Below, piece after piece: positions 6,342 to 61,061 of a DNA stretch of 64,000 nt. The position numbers and the translations under genes were made by a program. The notes under the pieces are model-generated. The model saw only the letters and a list, made by a program, of their open reading frames with translations. It ran no database searches and was not told the origin of the DNA. Source of the stretch: Escherichia phage vB_EcoM_ESCO56. Within the stretch, counting starts at the first letter, position 1. The number at the start of each line of letters is the position of its first letter. The stretch is from the sequence record OM386665.1; one strand, 5' to 3'.

Positions 6342-6354
6342 CCTAATAAGACTT

Positions 6355-7332: not shown

Positions 7333-7416
7333 ATGTTTAGTATTACCAGACCGTATCTTTCAATTTTTCCGCTAAAAATTTAATAAACATTGCTGTAAAC
7401 GGTCTTCTGTAAAATT

Positions 7417-7623: not shown

Positions 7624-7700
7624 TGGTCTCTGTTGGAGGACTTGAACCTCCGGCCTTACCGCCCCAAACGGAACGCTCTACCAAGCTGAGCTAAACAGAG
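7624..7700 (-). tRNA. tRNA-Pro (anticodon UGG)
   Basis: Acceptor CTCTGTT/AACAGAG, D-stem GCTC/GAGC, anticodon loop TTTGGGG (G37), T-arm GGAGG-TTCAAGT-CCTCC, A73, CCA. Confidence 0.8.
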
Positions 7701-13005: not shown

Positions 13006-13404
13006 ATGAAACTTTGGGCTAGTGACTTTGGAACTTTTAAGTACACTCGTGATGGTTCAATGGTGAGGATTATTGGCAGCCAGATTGTAGTAAGTGGTGA
13101 TGAGGTTTGTACAAAGTTCACTGTAGAGTTAGCTGAACTATCACCTATTACCCGTGCTAAGAATGGGTTTTTCAGGTTCGAGATTTACAAAGTAGATGAG
13201 TACGGTCGGTTCAACCCTCTTGGAGAGAGTGGATTAGATATTATTTCTGAACACCCATTGACAGCAGAGCAATTGTCAGGTTATTATAAAACTCTACTTG
13301 AAAGAGAGTTAGCAACACACGAGTGTGAAGCAAAATATCACATAGAGCGTTGTGAAACACTCAAAGAAAAGATAAAACTAGCAGAGAGAGGTTTTTATGA
13401 ATAA
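13006..13404 (+). CDS. hypothetical protein
   Basis: 132 aa ORF with AAGGAGA RBS. Confidence 0.6.
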   Translation: MKLWASDFGTFKYTRDGSMVRIIGSQIVVSGDEVCTKFTVELAELSPITRAKNGFFRFEIYKVDEYGRFNPLGESGLDIISEHPLTAEQLSGYYKTLLERELATHECEAKYHIERCETLKEKIKLAERGFYE

Positions 13405-13792
13405 TAACAGTCATATTCACGTTAAAGTTGATGTCAGCCGTTACAGCGAAAATGAGGAACTAGACCTGCAAGATGCTATTCTATTTGAGAAGAATGGTAA
13501 TCTCCATCTGCACTTCGAAGGTACAAACACATATCTCCACAGATGTCGAGATGATGCAGATGGTTGCCCTGTTTTTGCTTGGTATAATTTAGAGTTCCCT
13601 CTTTACGCAATCCACTACCCAGATGGTGGAGAAGACTGGACAACTCAGTCAATTTTTGATGAGCTTAACGGTGTTCCGGTTGAGCAAGAAGAGCAAGAGC
13701 CTGTCGAACTGACCTTCACCTTCGTCAAAGAAGAAACGGTTGGTGATTTGTCAGTAACTGAAGCTATTCAGGTAACACAGGTTATTCGTTAA
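13397..13792 (+). CDS. hypothetical protein
   Basis: 131 aa ORF, overlapping start/stop with neighbours. Confidence 0.55.
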   Translation: MNNNSHIHVKVDVSRYSENEELDLQDAILFEKNGNLHLHFEGTNTYLHRCRDDADGCPVFAWYNLEFPLYAIHYPDGGEDWTTQSIFDELNGVPVEQEEQEPVELTFTFVKEETVGDLSVTEAIQVTQVIR

Positions 13793-14085
13793 TGAGTAAA
13801 GTACAGGTTATTTTCCCTATTTGTGACTTCTCACTAGAGCGTGAACTTGACCTGTACGAAGAAATTACTGACGAAATTATCTGGTCTGTTGTAGAAGAGG
13901 CTATCAAGAAACTATATGGTGGCCTCTTAAACCCATCAAGTAAGAAGTTAAGCACTAAGCAAGTAGCTGACCCATATGTTTCATACGATGCCTACAACAA
14001 ACCTTTTGAGAATACCTGCTTTGACCTTATGGTAGGTAATAACAAAGTCAACTATTTCTTCGTCAGAGAGTTTAACGATGAGTAA
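13792..14085 (+). CDS. hypothetical protein
   Basis: 97 aa ORF, ATGA start/stop overlap with upstream gene. Confidence 0.5.
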   Translation: MSKVQVIFPICDFSLERELDLYEEITDEIIWSVVEEAIKKLYGGLLNPSSKKLSTKQVADPYVSYDAYNKPFENTCFDLMVGNNKVNYFFVREFNDE

Positions 14086-14422
14086 GCTCCATGTCACAGT
14101 GTACAAAAACTTCTCAGATATTAAAGAGTCTTTAACAAATAAGCTTGACTTACAACGTAAAAGGCTCTTTTTAATGTACGATATCGACAACTACGACCAT
14201 CCTAAAGAGTTTAACTACAAAGGTGGTACAAAGGTTGTTGAATTTGAAGACTCTGTGACGGTATATGTCAAGCATGACTTACCAGCAAAGGACATAGGGA
14301 TGTTAGAGTATTACATATTCAAACATACTGGTATGCGTGGTGAATCTGTCAAGATATCCTCTGTAGAAGTTTTTGAGAAACCTAACACACAACTTAAAAA
14401 GTATTTAATGAGGAAACTGTAA
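14078..14422 (+). CDS. hypothetical protein
   Basis: 114 aa ORF in same operon. Confidence 0.5.
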   Translation: MSKLHVTVYKNFSDIKESLTNKLDLQRKRLFLMYDIDNYDHPKEFNYKGGTKVVEFEDSVTVYVKHDLPAKDIGMLEYYIFKHTGMRGESVKISSVEVFEKPNTQLKKYLMRKL

Positions 14423-15003
14423 TGTCCGAAGAGCAACAGGATATCATTCCACAAGTAACACTGGTACAACATTTTGGAAATATTGAAGGGTGTATTGCAC
14501 TTTTTCAACCAAGTATCAACTCTCCTGCAAAAGTTTGCAAGTTGACTATGAATGTTAACAATATCAGTGTTTGCCTTGTGGAAGAAGTTCAATATTTCAA
14601 GTTTAACGACAGAGAGGTTGACGCTGCACTATTGAAGTATCGAGCAAGCCTCGAAAAAGATATTGACCACAAAGAACTTGTAACACTATTTGGTGACCTT
14701 CACAAGCTTCTTGAAAAGGTTATGAAACGCACATATTACATGAATAATGGTTCAATCATCACCACTTTGATTTCACCATGTATTTCAGAGCCAATTTTAA
14801 CTGATGACGGTGGATACTACGTGGTAGCATCAGCAGATTCTGATTGGTGGATGAAGAACACAGCACTTAAAACAGTGATTGAGGCTATCCGCGAACATAT
14901 CCCTACATTTAGTCCGTGGAAAGGTAAAAGTGATGATTTTATCGCACTATTGAGTGAAGAGAGCAACAAGCGCAGTGCATTACTGCCTAAAAAATACTCT
15001 TGA
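14422..15003 (+). CDS. hypothetical protein
   Basis: 193 aa ORF, start overlaps upstream stop. Confidence 0.55.
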   Translation: MSEEQQDIIPQVTLVQHFGNIEGCIALFQPSINSPAKVCKLTMNVNNISVCLVEEVQYFKFNDREVDAALLKYRASLEKDIDHKELVTLFGDLHKLLEKVMKRTYYMNNGSIITTLISPCISEPILTDDGGYYVVASADSDWWMKNTALKTVIEAIREHIPTFSPWKGKSDDFIALLSEESNKRSALLPKKYS

Positions 15004-15075
15004 CCGAGTATACAATATTGACTATGATGGGAGCTATTGAGAGATAGTTCCCTTTTTAGTTTCTGGAGAATAGAC

Positions 15076-15621
15076 ATGGCTAAAGTGAAAGAACACGATA
15101 AAATTATTTTGTATGTTAAACAGAATCCTTCAAAGAGTGTTGAGGCTGTTGTAACACACATCTCACACAATGGAACAGTTTATTTCCGACCACTGAAGAA
15201 CTTAGACTTTGACACAACACCAAACCACACATTCAGTTCTCCTGCAAGACTGTGTGCAGGGATTGTATACTCAACCGCTGAGATTGAGTCCTTATCTTTC
15301 ACAGGTGCTTACAAAAACTTTATAGGGATTGCTTTAAAGGACTCTGAGGAATCTTTTAAATTCTTCATGGAGACCAATAAAGGTTGTTACGCACATGTTA
15401 TGCCCGTCTATAAGAAAGTTGACACAGAACTTACAAGCAAGTGCGAAGAGCTTAGTAGTGACCTGAAGGAGCGTAAAACAGCTATTCAGAATGCCATTTA
15501 CATCATTGAGAGGGACCACTTAGAAGTTCTTTTCAGAGATATGCTAAAAGCAGGGTTTACCCCAAACGAAATTACAAGAGAAACACAACGCCAGTTCAGA
15601 AATGCTATGGTGAAAGAATGA
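15076..15621 (+). CDS. hypothetical protein
   Basis: Track ORF 15037..15621 trimmed to ATG at 15076 (MAKVKEHDK...) preceded by GGAGA. Confidence 0.55.
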   Translation: MAKVKEHDKIILYVKQNPSKSVEAVVTHISHNGTVYFRPLKNLDFDTTPNHTFSSPARLCAGIVYSTAEIESLSFTGAYKNFIGIALKDSEESFKFFMETNKGCYAHVMPVYKKVDTELTSKCEELSSDLKERKTAIQNAIYIIERDHLEVLFRDMLKAGFTPNEITRETQRQFRNAMVKE

Positions 15622-15836
15622 AAAAATTAACTACAGTTGAAGATTACTACAAACTATCCTTGTTAGAACAGTATCGCAGAAGCCAGAATATCAGAAAATG
15701 CTATGGTAGACACGCTGAATGTGACTTTTACCATTGCTATGATGCAGATTTAAAAGGTGTAACACCTAGAGGTAAAGTCCTACATAGGCTTGTTGACCTT
15801 GAATGGGACAAACGATTGAGAGAGGTTGGAAAATGA
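15618..15836 (+). CDS. hypothetical protein
   Basis: 72 aa ORF; ATGA overlap with upstream stop. Confidence 0.45.
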   Translation: MKKLTTVEDYYKLSLLEQYRRSQNIRKCYGRHAECDFYHCYDADLKGVTPRGKVLHRLVDLEWDKRLREVGK

Positions 15837-16336
15837 TTTACGAAGAAAGATACAAAATAGATTACCAGAAGACTGGTCATCATGTCTCCCTAAGAGTAAC
15901 CAAACCGAATGGAGATACCGGTATCATAGCACATTTTGGTGGTGATTATTGGTACGGCACAGGTTGCTTTGAAGGCTACAGTCAAGAATACTTGAAAGCT
16001 TTCTACAGAGACTTTACAAATGACTACAACAGGCTTGTTGACGAAAAGAATAAGTGCATTAAGCATGAACACCGTGCCAGAGGTTGCCTAAGTATTGTTA
16101 TGGTACTGGCGTTCTTCTTAGCAATGTTACTGACAGTATCAGTAATCAGTTGTATAGCTCAAGACTTGACCATTACACAGATTACTGCAAAGCTGCATGA
16201 TATCTGGTACTTGTATACTGTTCCTTTAGCTGGTATTATCATCTCACTAATGAGGTTCAGAGTTCATAAGAAACGACTTAAGGACTCTGAAGTTAAACTT
16301 GAAGAGGTAAGTAAAGAATGCAACCTACAATTATAG
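15833..16336 (+). CDS. hypothetical membrane protein
   Basis: Track ORF 15803..16336 trimmed to ATG at 15833; contains transmembrane stretch CLSIVMVLAFFLAMLLTVSVISCIA. Confidence 0.5.
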   Translation: MIYEERYKIDYQKTGHHVSLRVTKPNGDTGIIAHFGGDYWYGTGCFEGYSQEYLKAFYRDFTNDYNRLVDEKNKCIKHEHRARGCLSIVMVLAFFLAMLLTVSVISCIAQDLTITQITAKLHDIWYLYTVPLAGIIISLMRFRVHKKRLKDSEVKLEEVSKECNLQL

Positions 16337-16412
16337 CTTTATGTGTTCGTTTTGCAATCGCTGAAATGATTAACAAGGCAATCTTAAAAGACGCCTATGG
16401 AGAGACTAAGTA

Positions 16413-16637
16413 ATGATTAAGACACCTGTACCAATTTTTGGATTTCCTTCTATAGAAGAGTTTAAAGTTTATCTTGACAAAAACTTCTACAATGAGCAGC
16501 CTGTAACGCTTCTGAAGAGTGACTTATCAGAGCTTCTTGATATGATTATCAAGGCAACTTCTGAGAAGGAACCTGAACAGAAAGCTGAGAAGAAGACTAG
16601 TAAGAAATCCGATAAGAAGACTGAAAAGTCTGAGTAA
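16413..16637 (+). CDS. hypothetical protein with lysine-rich C-terminus
   Basis: 74 aa ORF; C-terminus KAEKKTSKKSDKKTEKSE. Confidence 0.45.
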   Translation: MIKTPVPIFGFPSIEEFKVYLDKNFYNEQPVTLLKSDLSELLDMIIKATSEKEPEQKAEKKTSKKSDKKTEKSE

Positions 16638-16689
16638 TAACTTAGGGGTTACTTGATAGCCCCTTTGTAGAAACTTAGAAGGTAGCGAA

Positions 16690-17100
16690 ATGAAAATTAA
16701 AGAAGTCGTTCAAAAAGCAATGCTTGACAACTCGACTAAAGATGAAATGTACAATGACATTTGTGATAAGTTGAATTGCTCAAGACATGCTGCTAAGGTT
16801 CTTGTACATTGTTTTATCTGGGAATGCTCAGAAGCTGGTGAGAATCTAAAAGAACCTGAAGTGAAAACAGTCCCTAAAGTTGGTAATGTTTACCGTCTTA
16901 AAGACTTCAAGACTGGAAAGATTGTTGCAAAAGGTGTAGTAGAGTCTGTCTATCATGATGGTAAATACTTACTTAAAATATTTGAGTATGATAGCCGCTA
17001 TACACACTTGTGTGGTCTTACATTTTTAGTAACAGAAGAAGACCTCATTAAAAACAATGACAACAAGTTTGCAGTACCAGACTTCCAAGTTTTACGATAA
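16690..17100 (+). CDS. hypothetical protein
   Basis: 136 aa ORF with GAAGGTAGCG..ATG context. Confidence 0.5.
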   Translation: MKIKEVVQKAMLDNSTKDEMYNDICDKLNCSRHAAKVLVHCFIWECSEAGENLKEPEVKTVPKVGNVYRLKDFKTGKIVAKGVVESVYHDGKYLLKIFEYDSRYTHLCGLTFLVTEEDLIKNNDNKFAVPDFQVLR

Positions 17101-17662
17101 TGGTGTGATAGCTATGGAAAAAGATAACTTAAAAGAAGTTGAAGGTAACTACCTAGTCCTTGACTGGAGTGATATTCGAGAAGCATTATCCAAAGAAAGC
17201 CTTGACATACTGGAGCAGCTTGTCTTTTCAGTACGACATATCAGAGAAGTTGAAAATGGTAAAGAGCCACTTGAAGGAATCTTTGTAGAGAAGTCTTATC
17301 CGTTCTATGAAGACACTTTGCAGAAAGTTAAAATGTACTTTAAACAGAAGAACCGTAAAGTGGTCACTATGGTATCTCTTGGTGGACAGAGTATGTCTGT
17401 GATGGAAGATATCAATCCTAAGAGACCGAGCAAAGGTGTCTGTATAAAAATCACAGGGCATGAAGAGTATATCTCAATTGATGATTTTAGTGCACTCTGT
17501 AATGGTTCTGCTGTCTTTAATGGGTTTCACTATGATATCCGAGTGTATCCAATCAAGGGGGATGCTGTTATGATGCAGATATTCGATATCAATGGTGGAT
17601 TTACTCATTTTTATCAGACAACCAAGTCATCATTGAAGACAGTTTTAGAAAGTCTGATTTAA
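17057..17662 (+). CDS. hypothetical protein
   Basis: 201 aa ORF; start uncertain (alternative ATG at 17114). Confidence 0.5.
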   Translation: MTTSLQYQTSKFYDNGVIAMEKDNLKEVEGNYLVLDWSDIREALSKESLDILEQLVFSVRHIREVENGKEPLEGIFVEKSYPFYEDTLQKVKMYFKQKNRKVVTMVSLGGQSMSVMEDINPKRPSKGVCIKITGHEEYISIDDFSALCNGSAVFNGFHYDIRVYPIKGDAVMMQIFDINGGFTHFYQTTKSSLKTVLESLI

Positions 17663-17674
17663 AATATCTTAAGA

Positions 17675-17700
17675 GCCTCCTTAATTGGGGGCTTTTTATT
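17675..17700 (+). terminator. intrinsic terminator ending the plus-strand operon
   Basis: GCCTCC-TTAATT-GGGGGC hairpin followed by TTTTTATT. Confidence 0.7.
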
Positions 17701-17890
17701 GAGTAAAATTTACGAAATTTATATTTTTTATAAAATTTATCGGTTGTACCAACCTCTGGGTCACCATCATATGTGAATAAAATATCTATCCTTCTTAACA
17801 ACCTTCTTAATCTTACTCTCTATATAGTTATATAGTATTATATAGTATCTTAGTAACTATCTAGTGGTCTTAATAGCCCATCTGTATAAC

Positions 17891-17962
17891 CCTTCTAACA
17901 AGCCTTCTAACAAGCCTTCTAACAAGCCCTCTAACAAGCCCTCTAACAAGCCTTCTTAACAG
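17891..17962. repeat. tandem 12-bp repeat, six units (CCTTCTAACAAG and variants)
   Basis: Direct inspection: ccttctaacaag x3, ccctctaacaag x2, ccttcttaacag x1. Confidence 0.9.
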
Positions 17963-18318
17963 CCTATACAATCACCTTAACCATCCCTCTACACCCTCTT
18001 AGAAGCTCCTATACACCTCTTAATCTCTAGGTAAGCTATGACACTCTCTATAGGTGTTCACTAGGCACTACTAAGCCTCTATATAGACTGTTTTAACAAA
18101 CTTAACAGGAATATCTTTACAGACCTTATCTCACAAGGTCTAACACGGTACTAACAAGGTATCTTATAAGCCTGTTTCTACCTGTATTTTAGAAAGACTG
18201 TATAGGTAATTATTCAGAATTTTAATTTTTTTATAAAATAAGACTGTCAAGCCATTTTTTAGGGTCTTTGAAGGAACTGAAAAATATCTGTAGAGGATGT
18301 ATATCTGTTTGGTAGCCC

Positions 18319-18594
18319 TTAACAGCTCTGTAACATCCCCTTTGCAAAATTTTAAAATATCATTAACAATCTCTTAACAACTCTCTCAAGTTCTTAACAT
18401 CTCTTCAGAGGTCTTAACAGTTTCTTAACAGTTTTAACAAGAGGGTAACAATTTCTTAACAGTTGATACATAGGCTTTACAGAATCTTAACAGATGATTA
18501 ACAAGAGCTAACAAGTTAATTTTTAAGGGTTATTTTGTTAAGATAATTAACAAGTTCCTAACAAGTATTTAATCTTTTTAACAAACTATTAACA
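18319..18594. repeat. array of at least 16 (C/T)TAACA(A/G) sites, mostly spaced 11 or 20 bp (helically phased)
   Basis: Site starts at about 18319, 18330, 18363, 18374, 18394, 18414, 18425, 18434, 18445, 18456, 18487, 18498, 18508, 18547, 18558, 18578, 18589. Confidence 0.85.
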
Positions 18595-18660
18595 TGGTCA
18601 CTACTCTTTTCTTATCGTTCCCTTTCCTTTCTTAGTGATACCTTAAAAATGCCTTTTAAA

Positions 18661-18682
18661 AGCTCTCTATAGCTCTCTATAG
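18661..18682. repeat. tandem 10-bp repeat AGCTCTCTAT x2 plus partial
   Basis: agctctctat agctctctat agactc. Confidence 0.8.
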
Positions 18683-18796
18683 ACTCTTTTTAGTCTCTCC
18701 CTAGTATTTACCCCTCAACTGTATGAATAGCCCTTTATAGGGCTTTACAGGGCTTTTAAGGCTATGCCAAAGGCTTTTACAAGGCTTTTACGTGGT

Positions 18797-18895
18797 CTTA
18801 ACAGAGATTTAACAAGGGGCTAACAAGTTGTTAACAAGTGTCTTAAAAGTATAACTATGTAGGATTTGTTAAGAAATTGTTAAGAAAATGTTAAG
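18797..18895. repeat. convergent set of TTAACA sites (four direct, then three inverted as TGTTAAG)
   Basis: cttaacag, tttaacaag, gctaacaag, gttaacaag, then ttgttaag, ttgttaag, atgttaag at 10-12 bp spacing. Confidence 0.8.
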
Positions 18896-18910
18896 GGGGC
18901 TAGCATTTAC

Positions 18911-18940
18911 GTAACTTTTGAGTAACTTTTGAGTAACTTT
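18911..18940. repeat. tandem 11-bp repeat GTAACTTTTGA x2.7
   Basis: gtaacttttga gtaacttttga gtaacttt. Confidence 0.8.
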
Positions 18941-19114
18941 ATAGCCCCTATAACATACTTTTTAGTGACTATCAAGCCCTTTTTAGTAGTTCACGAGATA
19001 CTAATCAGCCTATAAGCTTATACCCTTAAAAGATTCTTTTAAGGCTCTGTAAAGCCTTATAAAGGGCTTTTTAAGGTTAGTTAATGCAATCCCTTAAGTT
19101 ATATTGATAATGCT

Positions 19115-19134
19115 GTTATAGAGCGTTATAGAGC
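19115..19134. repeat. tandem 10-bp repeat GTTATAGAGC x2
   Basis: gttatagagc gttatagagc. Confidence 0.8.
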
Positions 19135-19312
19135 GTTTAAAGGTTTGCCCTTCCCTCTCGGGCTATGGGCTTGTATTTAAGTTGATTTGATAAAAGGCTA
19201 TAGGGTAGACTATAGAGTTATTGCTTTTTAAGGTATGAGATAAACTCTATCGAATCAGTGGGGAGATTCTAGAAAGGTGAGGAAAGGGATTGCATAAGGA
19301 TTTGATAGACGT

Positions 19313-19335
19313 AAAAAAGCCCCCATTTAAGGGGC
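19313..19335 (-). terminator. intrinsic terminator for the minus-strand early region
   Basis: Minus strand: GCCCC-TTAAATG-GGGGC hairpin followed by TTTTTT (plus-strand A-run 19313-19318). Confidence 0.65.
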
Positions 19336-19379
19336 TTTATAAAGGTATCTGGGGCTATTTAGCCCCGTTGATTGACAAT

Positions 19380-19910
19380 TTACAGATTTTTGATTGTATC
19401 ATCGATATCTTTTTCAATATCTTTTAAAGTTTTTTCTAAATTCTTGATATTGAAAGATAAGCCCTCTCCCAATGTCTTAGTGTAACCTTCAGGACGTGAG
19501 TTATATAGTTCAATTTCTTCCACTTCAAAGAGACTCACCGCCTCACCGTTTACATTGTAAGCCATTGAAACAGTATTTACAGGGGCTTTATAAAACTTGT
19601 TCAATGACTTGATTGAACGCTCATAAGTCATTTTATAACTGTTTAACAGGTTTTTAACGTGATTGTAAATGTTTTTACACTCATCTAAGTAAATCTCTAA
19701 GAATAACGGTAATAATTTTGCGACAGCTTGCATGAAATGAGAGACTACAACGGTTGCAACATTACGACGATGGACATAATAAGCCCCTTTTCCTGATTTA
19801 GTGATAGTTGCAAAATGTACACCATTGCAGCGAAATTCATATGTATCTTTGACAGGTTTAGACATTACAGCGCTTGAACGAATGAAGTTGATAGCTTGAA
19901 ATTTGTTCAT
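19380..19910 (-). CDS. hypothetical protein
   Basis: 176 aa ORF; GGAGA RBS; preceded by a family-1 promoter/leader cassette. Confidence 0.6.
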   Translation of the reverse strand: MNKFQAINFIRSSAVMSKPVKDTYEFRCNGVHFATITKSGKGAYYVHRRNVATVVVSHFMQAVAKLLPLFLEIYLDECKNIYNHVKNLLNSYKMTYERSIKSLNKFYKAPVNTVSMAYNVNGEAVSLFEVEEIELYNSRPEGYTKTLGEGLSFNIKNLEKTLKDIEKDIDDTIKNL

Positions 19911-19942
19911 TTTAGAATCTCCAGTTTAGGACTTTATTTAGT

Positions 19943-19962
19943 GGGGAGGTCATACCCTCCCC
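19943..19962 (-). repeat. leader hairpin, family 1 (GGGGAGG-loop-CCTCCCC), copy 1
   Basis: Lies between putative promoter and RBS of gene 19380..19910; repeated upstream of three other genes. Confidence 0.7.
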
Positions 19963-19972
19963 GTTGATTAGT

Positions 19973-20001
19973 AATTTACTTGGTTTGATATCTGATTGCA
20001 A
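19973..20001 (-). promoter_or_regulatory. sigma70-like early promoter (TTGCAA-N17-TAAATT)
   Basis: Minus-strand reading; followed by conserved hairpin leader and GGAGA RBS. Confidence 0.45.
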
Positions 20002-20136
20002 GCATTTTTTTTTTTTAAGTTTAGCTATAAAGAAATCTTTTAAGTGAATCCCTTTTAGATAAGCCCCCTCGAACAACATTATCAATGTCAAGGGGCGTTG
20101 TCAATACTTTTTTAAAAGTTTTTTGTAAGTTATTGA

Positions 20137-20478
20137 TTAACTGATGAATATTTTTTCAGGTTTTACATAGCTGATACGCTGATTTTTTAGAAGGTCATCC
20201 CAGATTAGCGCGGCAATATGAGAATAGCCGGATTCACGTAGAATCTTCATCGTTTTACATCTCGTTTCAAATCTGGTTGCATAGTACTCACTATTTAAAA
20301 CCGTTTTATTGCCTTCATTGTCCACATGTATAATTTGCATCACTTGAAAGGGGCTTACATCCTCGCCCTTGTTCCATTGTTCAAAGTATTTTAGGCACTG
20401 TATAGGTGTCATCTTGTCACTTACTTGAGTTGACCAAGATGAATCCTCTTTATCGGTAATTACGGTTACATAAGCCAT
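20137..20478 (-). CDS. hypothetical protein
   Basis: 113 aa ORF behind family-1 cassette. Confidence 0.55.
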   Translation of the reverse strand: MAYVTVITDKEDSSWSTQVSDKMTPIQCLKYFEQWNKGEDVSPFQVMQIIHVDNEGNKTVLNSEYYATRFETRCKTMKILRESGYSHIAALIWDDLLKNQRISYVKPEKIFIS

Positions 20479-20511
20479 ATTTTGAATCTCCAGTTTAGGA
20501 CTTTATTTAGT

Positions 20512-20531
20512 GGGGAGGTCATACCCTCCCC
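20512..20531 (-). repeat. leader hairpin, family 1, copy 2
   Basis: ggggaggtcataccctcccc; same context as copy 1. Confidence 0.7.
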
Positions 20532-20567
20532 GTTGATTAGTAATTTACAGATTTTTATCTGGCTTGT

Positions 20568-20801
20568 CTAGTCTTTTTCAATGATAATTTCATCTTGCCC
20601 GTCAACACTGTCAAAATAGATTCCGTCGTTATCTTCTGTCTTAAAGTAGCATTTAATATCATCACTGGCGGGGTAGTCTTGTCTTGCTATCTGGCAAACC
20701 TGAATAGCATTTTCTTTACTCCCTGTAAACTCCTCAAGCCCTTTAAAATCGCATGAATACCCATTACAGGTGGAAAGGATGAGATAAACGGTTGTAAGCA
20801 T
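20568..20801 (-). CDS. hypothetical protein
   Basis: 77 aa ORF. Confidence 0.45.
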   Translation of the reverse strand: MLTTVYLILSTCNGYSCDFKGLEEFTGSKENAIQVCQIARQDYPASDDIKCYFKTEDNDGIYFDSVDGQDEIIIEKD

Positions 20802-20867
20802 GATTAAAGCCCTCTAAAAGCCCCTACAAGGGGCTGAATAGTGTTTATAAGGTGATTGTATAGGTTA

Positions 20868-21410
20868 TTAGAAAAAGCTCCTTAAATCCTCTTCTGCGAT
20901 GTTTCCTGTTAGTGTATCCATGATGTCACAAAAAACCTGAATGCTGTCCACCTGTTGCACACTTTTAGCGAGAAGTTCTAGAGGCTCCTCAATATAGTTT
21001 AAATTCGGATTATCCAATGAAGGGAGACAGAAAGGTGAGTACATCGCATTAAATTCAGTGATGTAAACTTTTTTAATCCAGCTTATATCAAAATACTCTG
21101 TAAAACTTGCTACGCTAGACATATTATCGCAAGAATAATCATCATTTAGGTCATCTTCTGGAATATCAAGTTCTAAGATAACAATATTTTGAGTTTTCAT
21201 TTGAAAGGCCGCTGATATAGTGGCATTTCCTAGCGCTTGTTGAATTCCTTCCGATGTTATCTCTTGCTCATCGTCGCCATAGATTTTATTTTCTGGGTAC
21301 ACGTAGAAATTGCCGTCCATGTCCGAACAATTCCATGCACCTGATGGCTTATCACCGTTATTAATCAGGTTGATAAAATTTTCTTGAGTAGTGCCGTGAA
21401 AACATTTCAT
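20868..21410 (-). CDS. hypothetical acidic protein
   Basis: 180 aa ORF behind family-2 cassette. Confidence 0.55.
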   Translation of the reverse strand: MKCFHGTTQENFINLINNGDKPSGAWNCSDMDGNFYVYPENKIYGDDEQEITSEGIQQALGNATISAAFQMKTQNIVILELDIPEDDLNDDYSCDNMSSVASFTEYFDISWIKKVYITEFNAMYSPFCLPSLDNPNLNYIEEPLELLAKSVQQVDSIQVFCDIMDTLTGNIAEEDLRSFF

Positions 21411-21456
21411 TTTAGAATCTCCTAGTTTAAGGATTAAGTGATAAAGCTCTTTATCT

Positions 21457-21485
21457 GGGGCTTACTATATCGAACTATAAGCCCC
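21457..21485 (-). repeat. leader hairpin, family 2 (GGGGCTTA-loop-TAAGCCCC), copy 1
   Basis: ggggcttactatatcgaactataagcccc upstream of gene 20868..21410. Confidence 0.7.
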
Positions 21486-21500
21486 TTGTAAAGTACTTTA

Positions 21501-21701
21501 TCAATTATTTTTTACAACTTTTAAAACAGCAAGATAGCCTAAGCAATAGGAATCACCAAAGAGAGTCCGGCCCATGAATGAATCCTCCTTGATATCCTTT
21601 TCAGTGACGGTTTTTTCTACGCCGTGGGAGAGGACTACATCACCAACTTTAATATCTTTGATGTGAGTAGTCTCAATGTTTAAACCGTTAATAATAGCCA
21701 T
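21501..21701 (-). CDS. hypothetical protein
   Basis: 66 aa ORF behind family-1 cassette. Confidence 0.45.
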   Translation of the reverse strand: MAIINGLNIETTHIKDIKVGDVVLSHGVEKTVTEKDIKEDSFMGRTLFGDSYCLGYLAVLKVVKNN

Positions 21702-21736
21702 ATTTTGAATCTCCTAGTTTAAGGACTTTACTTAGT

Positions 21737-21757
21737 GGGGAAGGTCATTCCCTCCCC
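21737..21757 (-). repeat. leader hairpin, family 1, copy 3
   Basis: ggggaaggtcattccctcccc. Confidence 0.7.
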
Positions 21758-21805
21758 GTTGATGTGTAATTTAGTCTATCTAAAAACCAGTGTCAATAAA
21801 AATTT

Positions 21806-22210
21806 TTAGATTTCTGCATAAATTGAATCGCAGATATCGCGGAAGTCGTGGTTTGTCAAATTACGTTGCAACCAAGTAGCAAAGAAATCAGCGATTGCAA
21901 AATTCGCGCCATACTCGACGGATAGCCATACTTTCACGGCGAATCTGAACATTTTTAAATCAAGTTCTTTACTCATTACCTTAGATTTGCCCAACATGTC
22001 AGACATTTCATATTGTGCGCCGTCTAGCGTGATACCCGCTGCAACGTCAATCAGTGATTTTTTTACGCTTTCAACGTCTAAGATAACACTTTGAATCTTC
22101 CCGATAATGTTTTGCAGTGTTTCATCTGGCGCTGATGATGTCAGAGCATTAATCCGGTTAACGGTCAAACGTGCTTTTAAGATTAATAACTCACGGCTAT
22201 TAATAGTCAT
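21806..22210 (-). CDS. hypothetical protein
   Basis: 134 aa ORF behind family-2 cassette. Confidence 0.55.
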   Translation of the reverse strand: MTINSRELLILKARLTVNRINALTSSAPDETLQNIIGKIQSVILDVESVKKSLIDVAAGITLDGAQYEMSDMLGKSKVMSKELDLKMFRFAVKVWLSVEYGANFAIADFFATWLQRNLTNHDFRDICDSIYAEI

Positions 22211-22254
22211 TTTAGAATCTCCAATTTAGGATTTAGCGGTAAAGTTCTTTATCT

Positions 22255-22283
22255 GGGGCTTACTATATCGAACTATAAGCCCC
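22255..22283 (-). repeat. leader hairpin, family 2, copy 2
   Basis: ggggcttactatatcgaactataagcccc. Confidence 0.7.
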
Positions 22284-22295
22284 TTGTAAATTACT

Positions 22296-22568
22296 TTATA
22301 CTAAATGCAGCTTTTTGCCTTTTACCATGATGTAACTTGATGCGCTATTACTATATACATCCTGATAAATTCTGCGCAAACGTCCTTCATAGTGAACTTT
22401 CCAGCTCGTTGGTATCTTTTTCCCATATCCGGTAGCAGTTTTTTGAAGTCCAGCAATTTGCCAATCCAAAATATGTTGTTCCGCTTGTAAATCCTCAAAA
22501 TTCATCACGCCGTCTACATAGTGGCGTAGAGTGACATTTAGAGTACGGCCATTGTTAGTAGTATACAT
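22296..22568 (-). CDS. hypothetical protein
   Basis: 90 aa ORF behind family-1 cassette. Confidence 0.5.
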   Translation of the reverse strand: MYTTNNGRTLNVTLRHYVDGVMNFEDLQAEQHILDWQIAGLQKTATGYGKKIPTSWKVHYEGRLRRIYQDVYSNSASSYIMVKGKKLHLV

Positions 22569-22603
22569 CTTTTGAATCTCCTAGTTTAAGGACTTTACTT
22601 AGT

Positions 22604-22624
22604 GGGGAAGGTCATACCCTTCCC
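22604..22624 (-). repeat. leader hairpin, family 1, copy 4
   Basis: ggggaaggtcatacccttccc. Confidence 0.7.
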
Positions 22625-22634
22625 GTTGATGTGT

Positions 22635-22663
22635 AATTTAATATATCTAAAAATCAGTGTCAA
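22635..22663 (-). promoter_or_regulatory. sigma70-like early promoter (TTGACA-N17-TAAATT)
   Basis: Minus-strand reading, same architecture as promoter at 19973-20001. Confidence 0.5.
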
Positions 22664-22992
22664 CTGTTTTGTTTTCGTTTGCTCATTTCTTGAGCAATTA
22701 CAGCGTAGTAGTCTTTTAAGTTACTGATATTTAAAGCATTTAGTAGAGAGTTATAATCATCAACTAACTGGAAATCCTCTTTAAGGATGTCACTTATCTG
22801 ATAGGTTTCCGCTTTAAATCTAAAGCTCATCTCTAGCCGTTTTATTTGCTCATCGCTTAAACGCTCTAAAAAGCTCTCTACGAGGCTATTGCTAACCTGT
22901 TGTGTGATAGCCTTATCTGCTAAATTATAGGCGCTGTAAGCCTTATAAAGCGCTATAATGGCGATGATTGCAGTGATTCCCATCATTAACAT
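22660..22992 (-). CDS. hypothetical membrane protein
   Basis: 110 aa; N-terminal transmembrane helix MLMMGITAIIAIIALYKAY. Confidence 0.55.
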   Translation of the reverse strand: MLMMGITAIIAIIALYKAYSAYNLADKAITQQVSNSLVESFLERLSDEQIKRLEMSFRFKAETYQISDILKEDFQLVDDYNSLLNALNISNLKDYYAVIAQEMSKRKQNS

Positions 22993-23008
22993 GGTGTTTC
23001 CTCTTAAT

Positions 23009-23521
23009 TTAATTTTTAAAGATATTCATCACTGAATCTTTTAAGGCTTCTAGTTGTTCCATAACTTCAGATTCTGCGCCTGAATTGCTCACTTCCTCTT
23101 TTAGTCTATCTTCTAAATCAACGCCGTCGCTATAGCTCCAATCGAAAGCGTAACCAATAGAAAAACTATCTAAAACCGTTTTTCCGTTTGCGTCTACAAC
23201 TTTTGCAGATAGGTAATATTCTGAAGCCTCTAAATCCCTTTCTAGTTCTCTTTGTAAGCTCATGTAAGCCTCACGGGATGGATTTTCCCGGCCTTGTTTT
23301 GCATAGTCGCTTGAAATCTGTTTAAGGCTGTAATGTAAAGGGATTGCATATTTAAATTCATTGCGTTGATAGTTAGGATTTTTAATAGTCACACCGCCTT
23401 GATGGTCATCTGTAAACTCCCAATTTTCAAGGGCATGACTTGGTTCATACCAAGTAACAGCTTCATAAATGATTGAAAATTTTTCTTTTACAACTTCAAA
23501 GGTTGCGTCTACAGTTTTCAT
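23009..23521 (-). CDS. hypothetical protein
   Basis: 170 aa ORF behind family-2 cassette. Confidence 0.55.
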   Translation of the reverse strand: MKTVDATFEVVKEKFSIIYEAVTWYEPSHALENWEFTDDHQGGVTIKNPNYQRNEFKYAIPLHYSLKQISSDYAKQGRENPSREAYMSLQRELERDLEASEYYLSAKVVDANGKTVLDSFSIGYAFDWSYSDGVDLEDRLKEEVSNSGAESEVMEQLEALKDSVMNIFKN

Positions 23522-23565
23522 TTTTAAGTTCTCCAGTTTAGGTTTAGTGATAAAGCTCTTTATCT

Positions 23566-23594
23566 GGGGCTTACTATATCGAACTATAAGCCCC
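23566..23594 (-). repeat. leader hairpin, family 2, copy 3
   Basis: ggggcttactatatcgaactataagcccc. Confidence 0.7.
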
Positions 23595-23609
23595 TTGTAA
23601 AGTACTTTA

Positions 23610-24005
23610 TCAGTTAATTTTGAAGATAGTCACATATCCATCGCTCCCGATGATTTGAGAGACTCCAGCTTTTTCTACTGAATAGCCCATATTCTCAAGA
23701 TGATAAACAGCATCACCATAACCATATGCGCCGCCCTGATAGCGTCTCTTATTGCATTTTATCAGGTTTTTACCACGTCCAGCAAGTGCATTTAATACGG
23801 CTTTTTCACTTGAAAGCGTACCGTCTAACATTGTTGCCGTGTAATGATTGATTTTATTCCCGTTGATATCATACTTGAAATTGTATGCGTGAACAACAAT
23901 TATTTTATCGTTAAATTTTTCATCAAGCGCCTTCTCTAATACATTACGGAAATTTTCTTTATTGATGAATTTAGGTGCACGATATGTCATTTTTAAGTTC
24001 TCCAA
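23610..24005 (-). CDS. hypothetical protein
   Basis: 131 aa ORF behind family-2 cassette. Confidence 0.55.
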   Translation of the reverse strand: MENLKMTYRAPKFINKENFRNVLEKALDEKFNDKIIVVHAYNFKYDINGNKINHYTATMLDGTLSSEKAVLNALAGRGKNLIKCNKRRYQGGAYGYGDAVYHLENMGYSVEKAGVSQIIGSDGYVTIFKIN

Positions 24006-24035
24006 TTTAGGATTTAGCGGTAAAGCTCTTTATCT

Positions 24036-24064
24036 GGGGCTTACTATATCGAACTATAAGCCCC
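24036..24064 (-). repeat. leader hairpin, family 2, copy 4
   Basis: ggggcttactatatcgaactataagcccc. Confidence 0.7.
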
Positions 24065-24079
24065 TTGTAAAGTACTTTT

Positions 24080-24286
24080 TTAGATTTCGTAGTAGTAAAC
24101 TGCTGTCTGTCTTATGTGCTTTCTTGTGTTTCTTGTAAGATAGCAATTAGAGTCTATAGCCGTTTCTACATAATTGCAATAATCAGACTCTGAAATTCTG
24201 GACCATGCACCGCAAATTTGCATGTAAAAACGCTTTACATTTGTGTTAACGTTAGTTGTGACCATCAATTCACGACCGTATAGCAT
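24080..24286 (-). CDS. hypothetical protein
   Basis: 68 aa ORF, first gene after the 24.3-24.8 kb repeat region. Confidence 0.45.
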   Translation of the reverse strand: MLYGRELMVTTNVNTNVKRFYMQICGAWSRISESDYCNYVETAIDSNCYLTRNTRKHIRQTAVYYYEI

Positions 24287-24339
24287 TTTTAGATTCTCCT
24301 AGTTTAAGGCTATTGGGCTTGTTTGCCTGTCTGATGAAA

Positions 24340-24368
24340 ATACTAAATGACCATATCCAGAGAGTCAA
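24340..24368 (-). promoter_or_regulatory. sigma70-like promoter (TTGACT-N17-TAGTAT) with A-rich UP-like region
   Basis: Minus-strand reading; upstream of gene 24080..24286. Confidence 0.5.
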
Positions 24369-24546
24369 TAAAAAATTTTAAAAATATTTTCAGGAATTGC
24401 CAGAGAGGAACGGGTGCGCGCGAATACCACAAAACAGAACACAAATCAAGAATTATTTTTCAATCCGCTACAAATTTTTCTGTTGACTTTTCTTTTTGGA
24501 TGTGGTAGCCTTGTGAGAAATGGCGACATCCCCGCCTAGACCCGCT

Positions 24547-24726
24547 TACCTGCACAATTCTAAAATGATTTTTCTTGCCCGACCTGATTTTTCTCTGCAC
24601 GTTTTGAAAATGAAAAAGCTCTTTGGAGATTACCTGCACAGTTTGAAAATGAATTTTCTCTTTGGAGTTCAAAATTTTCTCTACAGATTTCTCTATAGAA
24701 ATATACCTGCACAATTCTGAAATGAA
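24547..24726. repeat. three direct repeats of about 22 bp TACCTGCACA(A/G)TT(C/T)T(A/G)AAATGA
   Basis: Copies at 24547-24567, 24631-24652, 24705-24726; also duplicated TTGAAAATGAA..CTCTTTGGAG near 24603 and 24644. Confidence 0.8.
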
Positions 24727-24798
24727 AAAGCCCTCCTTACCTGAAAAATTTACCAGATAAGAAAGGCTTAGTCTATTGTGAATATTCTACAGAGTTTC

Positions 24799-25584
24799 TT
24801 AGTTCTTTGCGTCTAAGAAGGTAACTTCTGGTGAAGAGAAGATTGCCTCGATATCCTCATCAGTTCTTGCATAAATGTAAGCATCGGCATCACTACCAAA
24901 TGTCACAGCAATTCTGTGATTGCTCTTCGACAGGTGGGTAACTAGAGCGTTACTTAGAGACATCTTTTCAACCGGAGGGTTACTTTGATGTATCTTACCT
25001 TTTCTTCGTCTGAAGAGGGTAACTGCGTTATCTGTGAACACAACTACACCTGCAAAGTATTCTGGTTCACAGTAGTTTTTCCAACCTGAGTGTAACTTGT
25101 TGTACATCTCTGTCTCGTAGACATACAGATAAACATCTACGCTCTTCATAACCTGATTGATGATAACTGTGACAGCTTGAGGGTCAAGTCCACCGATACC
25201 TGCACCAATCATAGGTAAACCAACTTTCTTCAACTGGTTAACTTCACAGTATCTGTTAAGTTGCTTCAAAGATGACTCTAAAGCACTGTATCGGGCGTCT
25301 TTACCAGTCTTAAGCTGAGTGTAAAGGTTAGCTATACGACCTTGTTTTAAACGTGCTACAGAGAAATTACCCAGTAAATTTTCACAGGGTTTGTGACCTA
25401 TACCACCTGCATAGATGTAAACTTCTGTATCGGTCTCATATGCTTTTGGGTAAAGTTTAGAAATCTTGTCAGCGATACCTGCACCCATTAAATTCATACA
25501 GTTGCAACCGTGACCAATGATGTCAAACTTACCTTTATCAAAGGCGTCAAAGATATCACCATTGATGATTTTTACAATACCCAT
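24799..25584 (-). CDS. macro-domain protein (ADP-ribose binding/hydrolase fold) with C-terminal domain of unknown function
   Basis: 261 aa; N-terminal IINGDIFD, GHGCNCMNLMGAGIA and GLPMIGAGIGGLDP match macro-domain glycine-rich loops; about 110-aa C-terminal extension unassigned. Confidence 0.65.
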   Translation of the reverse strand: MGIVKIINGDIFDAFDKGKFDIIGHGCNCMNLMGAGIADKISKLYPKAYETDTEVYIYAGGIGHKPCENLLGNFSVARLKQGRIANLYTQLKTGKDARYSALESSLKQLNRYCEVNQLKKVGLPMIGAGIGGLDPQAVTVIINQVMKSVDVYLYVYETEMYNKLHSGWKNYCEPEYFAGVVVFTDNAVTLFRRRKGKIHQSNPPVEKMSLSNALVTHLSKSNHRIAVTFGSDADAYIYARTDEDIEAIFSSPEVTFLDAKN

Positions 25585-60556: not shown

Positions 60557-60769
60557 ATGGCTCTTAAAAAGTTACATCCCAGAAGCGGTTATGGTAAGAT
60601 AATTGACGATACAGACGGCGTTACAGTCTTTACAGTTATCTGTCAAGATGATTCACAGATTGAAAAGGTTCTTGACGATTATCTTAACGATGAGCGTGAA
60701 AAGGTTAGGGCTACAAACATAGATTCATTGATTGATACTTCACACAAACGGAAGAAGAAAGATGAATGA
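60557..60769 (+). CDS. hypothetical protein
   Basis: 70 aa ORF. Confidence 0.5.
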   Translation: MALKKLHPRSGYGKIIDDTDGVTVFTVICQDDSQIEKVLDDYLNDEREKVRATNIDSLIDTSHKRKKKDE

Positions 60770-61061
60770 GGTTTTCGACCCTTATGCCCCACAAGATGAT
60801 TGGGAGGCTGATAGAGAGGCTGAAATGGAGAGTTATATTTGTCCAATGGATGTAGACGAAATGAGAGACTTCGTTGCACATCGTTTTAAGAGAGAGATTA
60901 AATCCAGAGGTCTTTCTCAAGAACAAGTTGCTAAAATTTGTGGTATCTCTCAGGCTCGTGTGTCCAACATAATCCATCTCACTGGTAACGTCTCCCTTGA
61001 GTATATGTTGGGAGTGTGTGAAAAATTTGGTGTTAATTTCAATTTAAGGTTGGCAGATTAA
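60762..61061 (+). CDS. helix-turn-helix protein (XRE-like, putative transcriptional regulator)
   Basis: Track ORF 60732..61061 trimmed to ATG at 60762 (ATGAATGA overlap with upstream stop); LSQEQVAKICGISQARVSNIIHL is an HTH signature. Confidence 0.55.
   Translation: MNEVFDPYAPQDDWEADREAEMESYICPMDVDEMRDFVAHRFKREIKSRGLSQEQVAKICGISQARVSNIIHLTGNVSLEYMLGVCEKFGVNFNLRLAD

Follow-up and report, generated by a model that had tools for sequence, protein, structure and literature searches.

The gap that separates the Macro-domain gene from the first small early gene of Escherichia phage vB_EcoM_ESCO56 is a strongly conserved, non-coding, cis-acting control region (24287-24798), with the rII-to-macro operon on one side and the variable block of small early genes on the other. 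The best explanation as a whole, to which we give slightly less than an even chance, is that four direct repeat units in this gap would be iteron-like protein-binding DNA sites and would form a transcriptional boundary at the edge of the plastic early-gene block. The window, meaning the whole stretch of 64,000 nucleotides that was analyzed, comes from a Felixounavirus with 99.8% identity to phage ESCO50. An earlier note on this DNA had reported a repeat-rich intergenic region of about 500 bp, and this region is real: it is a 510-bp gap past the Macro-domain gene and is not protein-coding. The genes around it are all on the minus strand.

24799-25584, minus strand: Macro-domain gene (ORF; Pfam Macro PF01661, E=8.5e-8), which closes the rIIA...macro operon
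24287-24798: the gap, about 510 bp, between the Macro-domain gene and the first small early gene
24080-24286, minus strand: first small early gene, with its start codon at 24286

The neighbors of the repeat array are thus the macro gene, whose product is labelled 'phosphatase' or 'O-acetyl-ADP-ribose deacetylase' in the records of ESCO50, wV8 and Mordin, and a small variable gene without a Pfam family. Read in gene direction, the gap consists of a terminator, the four repeat units, a replaceable GC-rich segment, an invariant block and the P_a cassette. The invariant block holds two back-to-back promoter-like elements, P_b and P_as.

The 22-mer TACCTGCACARTTYTRAAATGA matched at 24547-24568 (no mismatch), 24631-24652 (one mismatch) and 24704-24725 (no mismatch), with start-to-start distances of 84 and 73 bp. 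Shuffled windows contained a mean of 0.02 matches, and none of 100 shuffles reached three. Three 22-bp direct repeats spaced 74-84 bp had been described before; the copies at 24547 and 24631 and the distance of 84 bp stand as given, but the third copy begins at 24704 instead of 24705, the other distance is 73 bp, and the copies number four, not three. The overlooked fourth copy, TCTCTGCACGTTTTGAAAATGA, is more degenerate and lies at 24592-24613. A pair of sequences, TTGAAAATGAA...CTCTTTGGAG, was found twice as described, at 24601-24628 and 24640-24667. The repeated elements are as follows.

24704-24725, minus strand: repeat unit A, TCATTTCAGAATTGTGCAGGTA
24631-24652, minus strand: repeat unit B, TCATTTTCAAACTGTGCAGGTA, with the box CTCCAAAGAG (24658-24667) ahead of it
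24592-24613, minus strand: repeat unit C, the degenerate fourth copy, TCATTTTCAAAACGTGCAGAGA, which lacks GGTA and has the box CTCCAAAGAG (24619-24628) ahead
24547-24568, minus strand: repeat unit D, TCATTTTAGAATTGTGCAGGTA
24676-24699, minus strand: a second motif family of two tandem 12-mers, TCTRTAGAGAAA (Tandem Repeats Finder, period 12, 2.0 copies)

On the minus strand, which is the relevant one, the repeats form natural units of about 38-40 bp. The unit core is two-part, TTCATTT-N7-GTGCA(G), in which T-CATTT and GTGCA are invariant, the 7-nt spacer varies freely and no dyad symmetry is present. The 12-mer family has related copies at 24786-24796 and, more loosely, at 24465-24477, and its tandem copies were conserved in the alignment of relatives. 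A genome-wide search for the repeat unit, proposed in the earlier note, returned matches at the array only, with four in the window and exactly four in each of two complete related genomes. A reported extra site in SUSP1 and Sf13/Sf14 turned out to be units matching one another, and 17-mer matches at 60652 and 61503 near an HTH gene were rejected as weak, located inside coding sequence and at chance level. The 64 kb contain only one non-coding repeat cluster besides the array; apart from the terminal-repeat region, it was the sole local multi-copy direct-repeat cluster in the window.

Four units were present in all relatives examined, belonging to Felixounavirus, Mooglevirus, Suspvirus and Kolesnikvirus, except that two contigs had three and a distant contig had five, and unit C was found at the same place in every genus examined. 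Unit spacings among relatives were 73/39/45, 75-77/39-41/45 and 37/37/39 bp, the last from Erwinia phage M7, which carries the most regular array. Helical phasing was rejected, as the 73 and 84 bp in the window looked phased but 75/41/45 and 37/37/39 in other genera give no general rule. Minor-allele frequency was 0-1.5% over 24550-24580 and 24600-24770, whereas the macro gene had 9% at third codon positions and 1.2-1.9% at the first and second, and the repeat motif varied less than the second codon positions of that gene. In Erwinia and Hafnia phages, the array was the sole part of the gap that is shared. The surrounding proteins are less well conserved than the array, and strong purifying selection on the repeats as primary sequence fits protein-binding sites, either operators or iterons. 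No similar array was found in E. coli genomes and plasmids, and when 185,579 bacterial and archaeal genomes were scanned with a two-unit pattern, only unrelated matches came up, none of them in Enterobacterales; the idea that the array mimics a host-encoded array was rejected on these grounds.

The units are embedded among signals for transcription.

24718-24769, minus strand: intrinsic terminator of the macro operon found by a terminator scan, in which the tract UUUUUCAUUU comes after a 17-bp stem (24728-24769)
24490-24546, minus strand: replaceable GC-rich segment (GC 57-63%; minor-allele frequency 0.13-0.27)
24483-24511, plus strand: P_as, promoter-like, TTGACT (24483-24488), 17 nt and TAGCCT (24506-24511), pointing into the repeats
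24412-24461, minus strand: P_b, promoter-like, TTGATT (24449-24444), a 17-nt spacer and TATTCG (24426-24421), directed toward the early genes
24340-24396, minus strand: P_a, early promoter of the first small gene found by a promoter scan, TTGACT (24368-24363), 17 nt and TAGTAT (24345-24340)
24287-24339, minus strand: 5' leader ahead of the first small gene, containing a short hairpin and AGGAG as ribosome-binding site

The terminator had a minimum free energy of -25.8 kcal/mol (z=-7.0), and its T-tract doubles as the 5' part of repeat unit A. Its left arm is changed in Mooglevirus and Suspvirus with pairing retained, and the same terminator is annotated in the records of wV8, Tribble and KhF3.

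P_as and P_b were inferred from the sequence, and both were under the threshold of a consensus promoter scan. The -35 of P_as is invariant and its -10 is weak. P_b has an A/T-rich upstream tract, TGG ahead of TATTCG, and G instead of T at the last -10 position; Felixounavirus, Mooglevirus and Suspvirus all share its conserved -35 and upstream tract. The block between the -35 hexamers of P_b and P_as (24450-24480) displayed zero variation in 20 Felixounavirus sequences. The GC-rich patch of the earlier note, CGGGTGCGCGCGAATACC, was located at 24411-24428, with 63% GC in 24400-24429 against 13-30% in the flanks. A second patch, absent from that note, lies at 24505-24549, and in many relatives a C-rich tract (G-rich on the plus strand) replaces the segment 24490-24546. 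The TATTCG of P_b is followed by the GC island (about 24412-24422), in which pyrimidines and purines alternate over 9-13 bp and which has sequence variants among relatives. A hairpin at the island was rejected as unstable (-2.9 kcal/mol, z=+0.77). We infer that the island is probably the GC-rich discriminator or start region of P_b and no separate element; P_b is the sole such promoter with a GC-rich discriminator in the window. The P_b/P_as block is unrecognizable in Erwinia phage M7 while the array is kept there, and the array therefore cannot depend on P_b/P_as.

P_a was conserved in all genera, Erwinia phage M7 included, and has an A/T-rich upstream tract at 24369-24396. It belongs to one of two promoter-cassette classes that recur upstream of small genes, and its layout of -35, -10, leader hairpin and ribosome-binding site is common to the cassettes at gene starts 22568, 21701, 20478 and 19910. 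The sequence of the leader hairpin differs among relatives with the arms remaining complementary; the hairpin is weak in the window. P_a and the other small-gene cassettes resemble the PeSL cassettes of T4-type phages, which are likewise repeated modules of a sigma-70 promoter and a hairpin and flank small, freely exchanged early genes; the gene after P_a also differs among close relatives. The likeness is limited to P_a and the downstream gene block, as the four units are no cassette copies and occur at a single locus.

In the preferred explanation, each unit would be the recognition site of one sequence-specific DNA-binding protein, of phage or host, and several copies of this protein would load side by side on the units in iteron fashion. 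The complex would sit on and directly behind the terminator, upstream of the tandem P_b and P_a and downstream of the opposing P_as. Because of this placement between the terminator, P_b/P_a and the opposing P_as, a transcriptional boundary is the preferred role: the complex may act as a roadblock behind the terminator, halting read-through and antisense transcription, and may also tune the promoters that start the early block. The role of such sites could be transcription control or an origin, and an origin is almost as likely as a boundary.

The suggestion that the repeats are operators of a regulator of early transcription or iterons was thus upheld in part. Selection on primary sequence fits protein-binding sites, but a general early-transcription regulator is unlikely: none of the other early promoters in the window carries the motif, and neither does any other part of two complete related genomes. 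The nearest -35-like hexamer, that of P_b, is 100-300 bp downstream of the units, which neither abut nor overlap any promoter. With this distance and a spacing that is not a multiple of the helical repeat, their geometry departs from that of classical operators or activator sites. The operators OR/OL of phage lambda are palindromic and overlap promoters, whereas the array consists of direct repeats 100-300 bp from the nearest -35. The stoperators bound by gp71 of mycobacteriophage L5 are closer, being several asymmetric, short intergenic sites in one orientation to transcription that could block elongating RNA polymerase, although they are scattered genome-wide and the units here occupy one locus. 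No repressor is known to bind the array units. The XRE-type HTH protein encoded at 60762..61061 (Pfam HTH_3), which the earlier note put forward as a binder, is disfavored by the missing dyad symmetry of the motif; XRE-type HTH proteins usually bind palindromes. Sites for sigma-54, sigma-E, CRP, IHF, Fis, MarA/Rob and EcoKI were compared with the units by eye on the basis of their consensuses, and none fits all four. In phage Bas63, the ORF over the array (bas63_0096) was scored non-essential, with fitness of +0.24 to +0.98 in all four PhageMaP datasets examined, a result that refers to insertions at unspecified positions in bas63_0096 and not to deletion of the array. Dispensability of bas63_0096 fits an accessory regulatory role of the array.

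The strongest competitor, which as a complete account we regard as rather unlikely, is a replication origin in which the four units would be iterons for a phage or host initiator, with opening aided by the adjacent A/T-rich tracts and transcription from P_b, P_as or P_a. Like the iterons of the lambda ori (four repeats), of the P1, F and pSC101 origins and of T4 oriE, the array groups a few direct repeats, each about 17-22 bp long, at a unique non-coding locus, with A/T-rich DNA and promoters close by and with conservation of primary sequence, not structure. At least three such repeats (3-5) occur at this locus across the subfamily, the 64-kb window has no further local cluster of multi-copy direct repeats outside the terminal-repeat region, and the A/T-rich tracts at 24369-24396 and 24450-24480 lie 70-180 bp from unit D. 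In two lineages of the array (Erwinia phage M7, contig L061), the unit half with GTGCA also matches a DnaA box except at one or two positions (cTATGCACA, TTATGCACg). Felix-type units (ACCTGCACA), in contrast, fail three of the eight specified DnaA-box positions, and their identity as DnaA boxes was rejected; no consensus DnaA box was found in the gap, and the window contained nine in total against 10.2 expected. No initiator gene lies beside or around the array. Cumulative GC skew does not turn at the homologous site of UAB_Phi87; it turns at the divergent region of the DNA polymerase and near the terminal repeat. The spacing of 37-45 bp exceeds that of typical iterons and is not helically phased, and Bas63 tolerates insertions in the homologous array. 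An origin function of the array is putative.

A role at the RNA level is improbable. Here the array would be transcribed from P_as (plus strand) or by read-through of the terminator (minus strand) into a non-coding RNA with repeated units, serving as a protein sponge or as a decoy of a defense system. Type III antitoxin arrays (ToxI, and pseudo-ToxI of phage PhiTE) likewise have several near-tandem units of about 36-45 nt in a phage non-coding region; the units here are 37-45 nt and most regular in Erwinia phage M7 (37/37/39), the plus strand has a promoter-like element ahead and a hairpin after, and the element is non-essential in laboratory hosts. The hairpin, however, terminates the minus strand only, with its T-run on that side, so the strand with the promoter ahead lacks a terminator. 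RNAalifold detected no compensatory pair outside the terminator on either strand, folding z-scores were -0.24 (plus) and +0.86 (minus), and Rfam gave no match to gathering score and nothing antitoxin- or sponge-like at E up to 10. A structured RNA or Rfam family was rejected on the basis of these results, and so was a tRNA-like element, as ARAGORN found none in the gap; an RNA-level role of an unstructured repeat is possible. Furthermore, no toxin-like gene follows the array, no similar array was found in E. coli genomes or plasmids, and the fitness of gene 96 was positive in both defense datasets read (TerY-P and AVAST type 4).

Less probable again is that each unit is a sigma-70 promoter, four in tandem driving the early block. 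A consensus scan gave TTTTCA-17-TATATT for unit A (9/12), and the T-rich tracts ahead of each unit resemble UP elements. Units B, C and D, however, have a poor -35 (AATTCA, AAATCA) and a -10 without the conserved final T that varies among relatives (TAATCT, TGGACT, TAAGCG, TAGGTG). The invariant GTGCAG would sit in the spacer, which is not conserved in promoters, and the real early promoters of the phage look quite unlike the units.

We assign only a small probability to a site like the T5 iss region, at which an injection stop or DNA anchoring about 7-8% from the first-entering end would hold the entering DNA, perhaps with membrane-bound DnaA or a different host protein as the anchor, during expression of the small early genes toward the end. 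The ESCO50 record starts in the TTAACA repeat region (window 18458), 6.1-6.3 kb (about 7%) away from the array; for UAB_Phi87, the distance to the inferred left end is 6.9-7.1 kb (about 8%). The block between array and end consists of small, highly variable genes transcribed endward, and left of repeat region 3 in T5, small variable genes are likewise transcribed toward the end (10.1101/866236). In both systems, conserved untranslated repeats about 7-8% from the genome end are better conserved than the adjacent end-directed small genes. DnaA-box-like sequences are shared as well, here in some array lineages only, namely in unit cores from the Erwinia phage and L061; Felix-type units match DnaA boxes poorly. 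Paired DnaA boxes and large inverted repeats are absent from the array. An essential role is expected for the T5 region, but in the Bas63 screen the site here tolerated insertions and was non-essential. The T5 model is itself in silico. Literature searches turned up no report of two-step injection in Felix-O1-like phages, and we know of none.

That one of two overlapping ORFs in the gap encodes a small repeat-containing protein is already contradicted and scarcely tenable.

24460-24714, minus strand: ORF overlapping the opposite-strand ORF
24520-24720, plus strand: ORF overlapping the opposite-strand ORF

The plus ORF is open in most Felixounavirus genomes, with units D, C and B in frame there (45 and 39 bp), and ORFs are annotated in the gap in many GenBank records. 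These records, however, place them on conflicting strands and frames, neither ORF matched a Pfam family, and a ribosome-binding site at the right distance is absent. Variable sites by codon position numbered 20/14/21 in the plus ORF and 28/20/26 in the minus ORF, compared with 31/14/115 for the macro gene, the control, in the same genomes. The frame is lost in wV8 by a 2-nt deletion, and unit spacings of 41, 37 and 73-77 bp disrupt it in other genera. The earlier note had taken both ORFs for spurious and had named conservation as a protein as evidence to the contrary; neither displayed codon periodicity and the frames break in relatives, in agreement with that view.

A physical genome end, terminal repeat or packaging site at the array is already contradicted and practically untenable. 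Felixounaviruses do carry direct terminal repeats of about 600 bp (PMC4837284), and several IMG/VR contigs stop within the homologous region, but these breaks reflect a C-rich, G-quadruplex-prone tract, adapter read-through or a chimeric join, Bas63 insertions are tolerated, and the array is not a terminal repeat because the mapped physical ends lie 5-7 kb away: the Bal31-sensitive SpeI fragments of UAB_Phi87 (4322 and 2819 bp) fit only the 6568-bp SpeI fragment 13014-19582, which places the ends near 15.3-15.8 kb (preferred), about 6 kb from the homologous gap at 21883-22403, or alternatively at about 16.8-17.3 kb, still more than 4.5 kb from it. The start of the ESCO50 record in the TTAACA region (window 18458) likewise speaks against an end at the array.

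The repeat array is apparently undescribed so far, as literature searches on Felix O1 transcription start sites, RNA-seq, origin and the array repeat found nothing. Its non-coding status means that the GenBank hypothetical proteins wV8 gp13, Meda_119, Tribble_125, Phi87_49/50 and bas63_0096/0097 are to be treated as non-coding, and it alters the interpretation of 'gene 96' in the Bas63 essentiality screen. If the iss-like reading were true, genome delivery in Felix-O1-like phages would proceed in two steps. These phages are in wide use for typing of Salmonella and E. coli, biocontrol and therapy, and according to the Felix O1 genome paper their transcription timing and replication start site are not known (PMC3185647). 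Because it is a rare, highly conserved, non-coding repeat cluster fixed at the edge of an exchangeable early-gene block, the array offers a small, concrete target for finding the missing regulator or initiator.

The window belongs to Felixounavirus. The 581 bases around the repeat array were 99.8% identical to Escherichia phage vB_EcoM_ESCO50, and 289 phage records matched this stretch, 234 of them over at least 80% of its length. The record MG065664.1, 'Campylobacter phage A132', was 90% identical to the Felixounavirus region over the full length, and its host label, Campylobacter jejuni, looks doubtful. A cluster of 13 tRNA genes is located on the minus strand at 3919-7700. Every gene here is encoded on the minus strand, and the region therefore has to be read in reverse, with the repeat copies named units A-D and the promoter-like elements P_as, P_b and P_a:

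24799-25584, minus strand: macro-domain gene (Pfam Macro), first in gene direction
Between this gene and the first small early gene: non-coding gap of 510 bp
First element, gene strand: intrinsic terminator, 17-bp stem and T-run (-25.8 kcal/mol, z=-7.0)
Second, 24704-24725, gene strand: unit A, overlapping the terminator T-run
Third, after unit A: two tandem 12-mers, TCTRTAGAGAAA
Fourth: units B (24631-24652), C (24592-24613) and D (24547-24568), CTCCAAAGAG in front of B and of C
Fifth, after unit D: GC-rich segment of 55 bp
Sixth: 45-bp block, two back-to-back -35-like hexamers and A/T-rich flanks
Plus strand: P_as, promoter-like, TTGACT-17-TAGCCT, directed into the repeats
Minus strand: P_b, promoter-like, TTGATT-17-TGGTATTCG, directed toward the early genes
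Seventh: GC island, beginning within the P_b -10-like hexamer
Eighth: P_a, TTGACT-17-TAGTAT, with A/T-rich upstream tract, leader hairpin and ribosome-binding site
24286-24080, minus strand: first of the small early gene series

The 22-mer direct repeats described in the earlier note are real, with matches at 24547, 24631 and 24704 against a chance expectation of 0.02. All three reported copies were confirmed, while a fourth, weaker one at 24592-24613 had been overlooked. The reported TTGAAAATGAA...CTCTTTGGAG pair and GC-rich patch (63% GC at 24400-24429) were also present. The genome-wide motif search proposed there identified the array as the sole locus in the window; no second site turned up in either complete genome searched, UAB_Phi87 or SUSP1, nothing similar was detected in E. 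coli genomes and plasmids, and a pattern scan of bacterial genomes gave unrelated matches only. A degenerate unit-like 17-mer, TATTTTAAAATTYTGCA, is located at the edge of a TTAACA-rich region (18343-18359, minus strand; about 15184-15200 in UAB_Phi87) and, with three mismatches, may be a chance match.

Most relatives carry four units, two IMG/VR contigs carry three and L061, a distant 88-kb contig, carries five. Unit spacing is 73/39/45 in Felixounavirus; the corresponding values for Mooglevirus and Suspvirus are 75-77/39-41/45, and Erwinia phage M7 has 37/37/39. At 5340-5780 of L061 (reverse strand), the five units come after a short macro-domain gene (148 aa), and a TTAACA-repeat array adjoins them directly, the small-gene block being absent between the two arrays. 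Judging from L061, they may originally have been neighbours.

The unit consensus, pooled from 50 distinct units of 15 genomes, displayed an invariant T-CATTT and GTGCA separated by seven freely varying bases, preceded by A/T-rich positions and usually followed by G. Within Felixounavirus the minor-allele frequency was 0-1.5% in the repeat region, lower than at codon positions 1 and 2 of the macro-domain gene (1.2-1.9%) and far below its position 3 (9%). In distant Erwinia and Hafnia phages the repeat part was the only shared portion of the gap. The conserved feature is the two-part primary sequence.

The two ORFs overlapping on opposite strands across the array (plus, 24520-24720; minus, 24460-24714) had looked spurious, and our analyses agree. 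Among 20 Felixounavirus sequences, variable sites were spread evenly over the codon positions (20/14/21 in the plus ORF and 28/20/26 in the minus ORF; 14/18/14, 17/20/23 and 14/12/20 in other ORFs of the gap), compared with 31/14/115 in the macro-domain gene of the same genomes. The plus ORF is frameshifted in phage wV8, unit spacings outside Felixounavirus are not multiples of three, GenBank records annotate ORFs on differing strands and frames, and neither ORF matched a Pfam family. A structured RNA was likewise rejected: RNAalifold, run with 14 sequences representing three genera, detected no compensatory pairs on either strand outside the terminator, folding energies were no better than those of shuffles (z=-0.24 and +0.86), and Rfam and ARAGORN scans found nothing. 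Mooglevirus and Suspvirus have a terminator with a different left arm that still pairs. The evidence shows that the array is a non-coding element constrained in primary sequence, at a single locus and in several copies.

Several metagenomic contigs terminate inside the homologous region and Felixounavirus terminal repeats are about 600 bp (PMC4837284), so the array was tested as a genome end. This reading was rejected. The exonuclease-sensitive SpeI fragments of UAB_Phi87 (4322 and 2819 bp) are derivable only from the 6568-bp fragment 13014-19582, and the ends are preferably placed near 15.3-15.8 kb. This position lies in non-coding DNA rich in TTAACA, equivalent to window 18260-19370, and about 6 kb separate it from the homologous gap (21.9-22.4 kb). 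The alternative, about 16.8-17.3 kb, falls inside coding genes and also keeps a distance of more than 4.5 kb. The ESCO50 record also starts within the TTAACA region (18458). The contig breaks reflect adapter read-through (L006 3583-3622, running into Nextera adapter), a chimeric join (L012 3510-3698, to unrelated GC-rich bacterial-looking DNA), both assembly artefacts, and a C-rich tract that replaces the 55-bp segment in many relatives. Contigs L005, L006 and L025 stop at or just past this tract, which on the plus strand is rich in G and prone to form G-quadruplexes (CCCCTCTCCCCCTCTTACTCCCC; e.g. L029 and L004 3540-3600); window 24490-24546 carries a different allele, G-rich on the opposite strand. 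The physical ends are probably in window 17780-19370, a 1.6-kb non-coding region with dense TTAACA/TGTTAA motifs plus a 12-mer in about seven tandem copies (AAGCCTTCTAAC), 83% identical to the UAB_Phi87 part to which the terminal repeat was mapped experimentally. The first 542 bases of NC_027360.1 (UAB_Phi87), repeated at 87062-87603 within the tRNA region, are an assembly overlap and not the reported physical 608-bp terminal repeat.

P_a is an ordinary early promoter-type element, belonging to one of two classes of promoter-plus-hairpin cassettes found upstream of most small genes at 19.4-24.3 kb. Cassettes on the minus strand at 19380-24300 are near-identical within each class (one has TTTACA-17-TATAGT and a hairpin that extends across the promoter; the other has TTGACA-17-TAAATT and, behind it, a hairpin in the leader) and are similar to PeSL cassettes known from T4-type phages. 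Close relatives differ in the gene after P_a. The 45-bp block showed zero variation among 20 Felixounavirus sequences. The GC island, an alternating pyrimidine-purine tract of 9-13 bp (variants include CGCGCGCAC, CGTGTGCGCACGT, CGCATACGTGCGT and TGCGTACACGCGT), formed no stable hairpin by folding. Its core varied mostly by transitions, preserving the alternation (at 24410-24424, eight variable columns with transitions only and six with a transversion, versus 105 and 173 in the whole gap), which is suggestive only. It directly follows the -10-like hexamer, a position suggesting that it serves the putative P_b as a GC-rich discriminator or as its start region. P_b is the only promoter-like site in the window with such a tract there.

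The simplest inference is that the units are candidate DNA sites for one sequence-specific protein, and two roles fit about equally well. The array may act as a transcriptional boundary and control complex: it overlaps the terminator and continues behind it, an opposing promoter-like element points into it, and tandem early promoters follow it. In favour of this role, its position is kept in every lineage, and no initiator gene, DnaA boxes or skew turn accompany it. Dispensability also favours it: in a PhageMaP screen of phage Bas63, 'gene 96', the ORF drawn over the array, had fitness values of +0.24 to +0.98 in all four datasets examined, comparable to other non-essential genes (10.1101/2024.10.10.617714), indicating that single insertions are tolerated in laboratory hosts; this covers the array ORF only, 'gene 97' over the P_b block having no data. 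Equally, the array may be an iteron-type replication origin, being unique in the genome, with only one other repeat cluster in the 64 kb and with near-consensus DnaA boxes within units in the Erwinia and L061 lineages. At the UAB_Phi87 counterpart of 53050-53300, an A/T-rich divergent intergenic region adjoining the DNA polymerase gene, the cumulative GC skew turns, which makes this region, with its CTTTTAAG-type repeats and an imperfect palindrome of 27 nt, a further candidate for an origin or promoter hub.

A DNA-holding site like the T5 iss is a minor possibility; the array would lie about 7-8% from the inferred genome end and, as in T5, adjoins variable, end-directed small genes. Tandem promoters and an unstructured decoy RNA are also minor possibilities, and the suggested general operator for early transcription is unlikely because all other early promoters are without the motif.

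No description of the element was found in the searchable literature, and existing records show it only as hypothetical ORFs or a terminator. Judged by its sequence, the array is a newly noted case of a familiar class, that of repeated candidate sites for protein binding within the control region of a phage.
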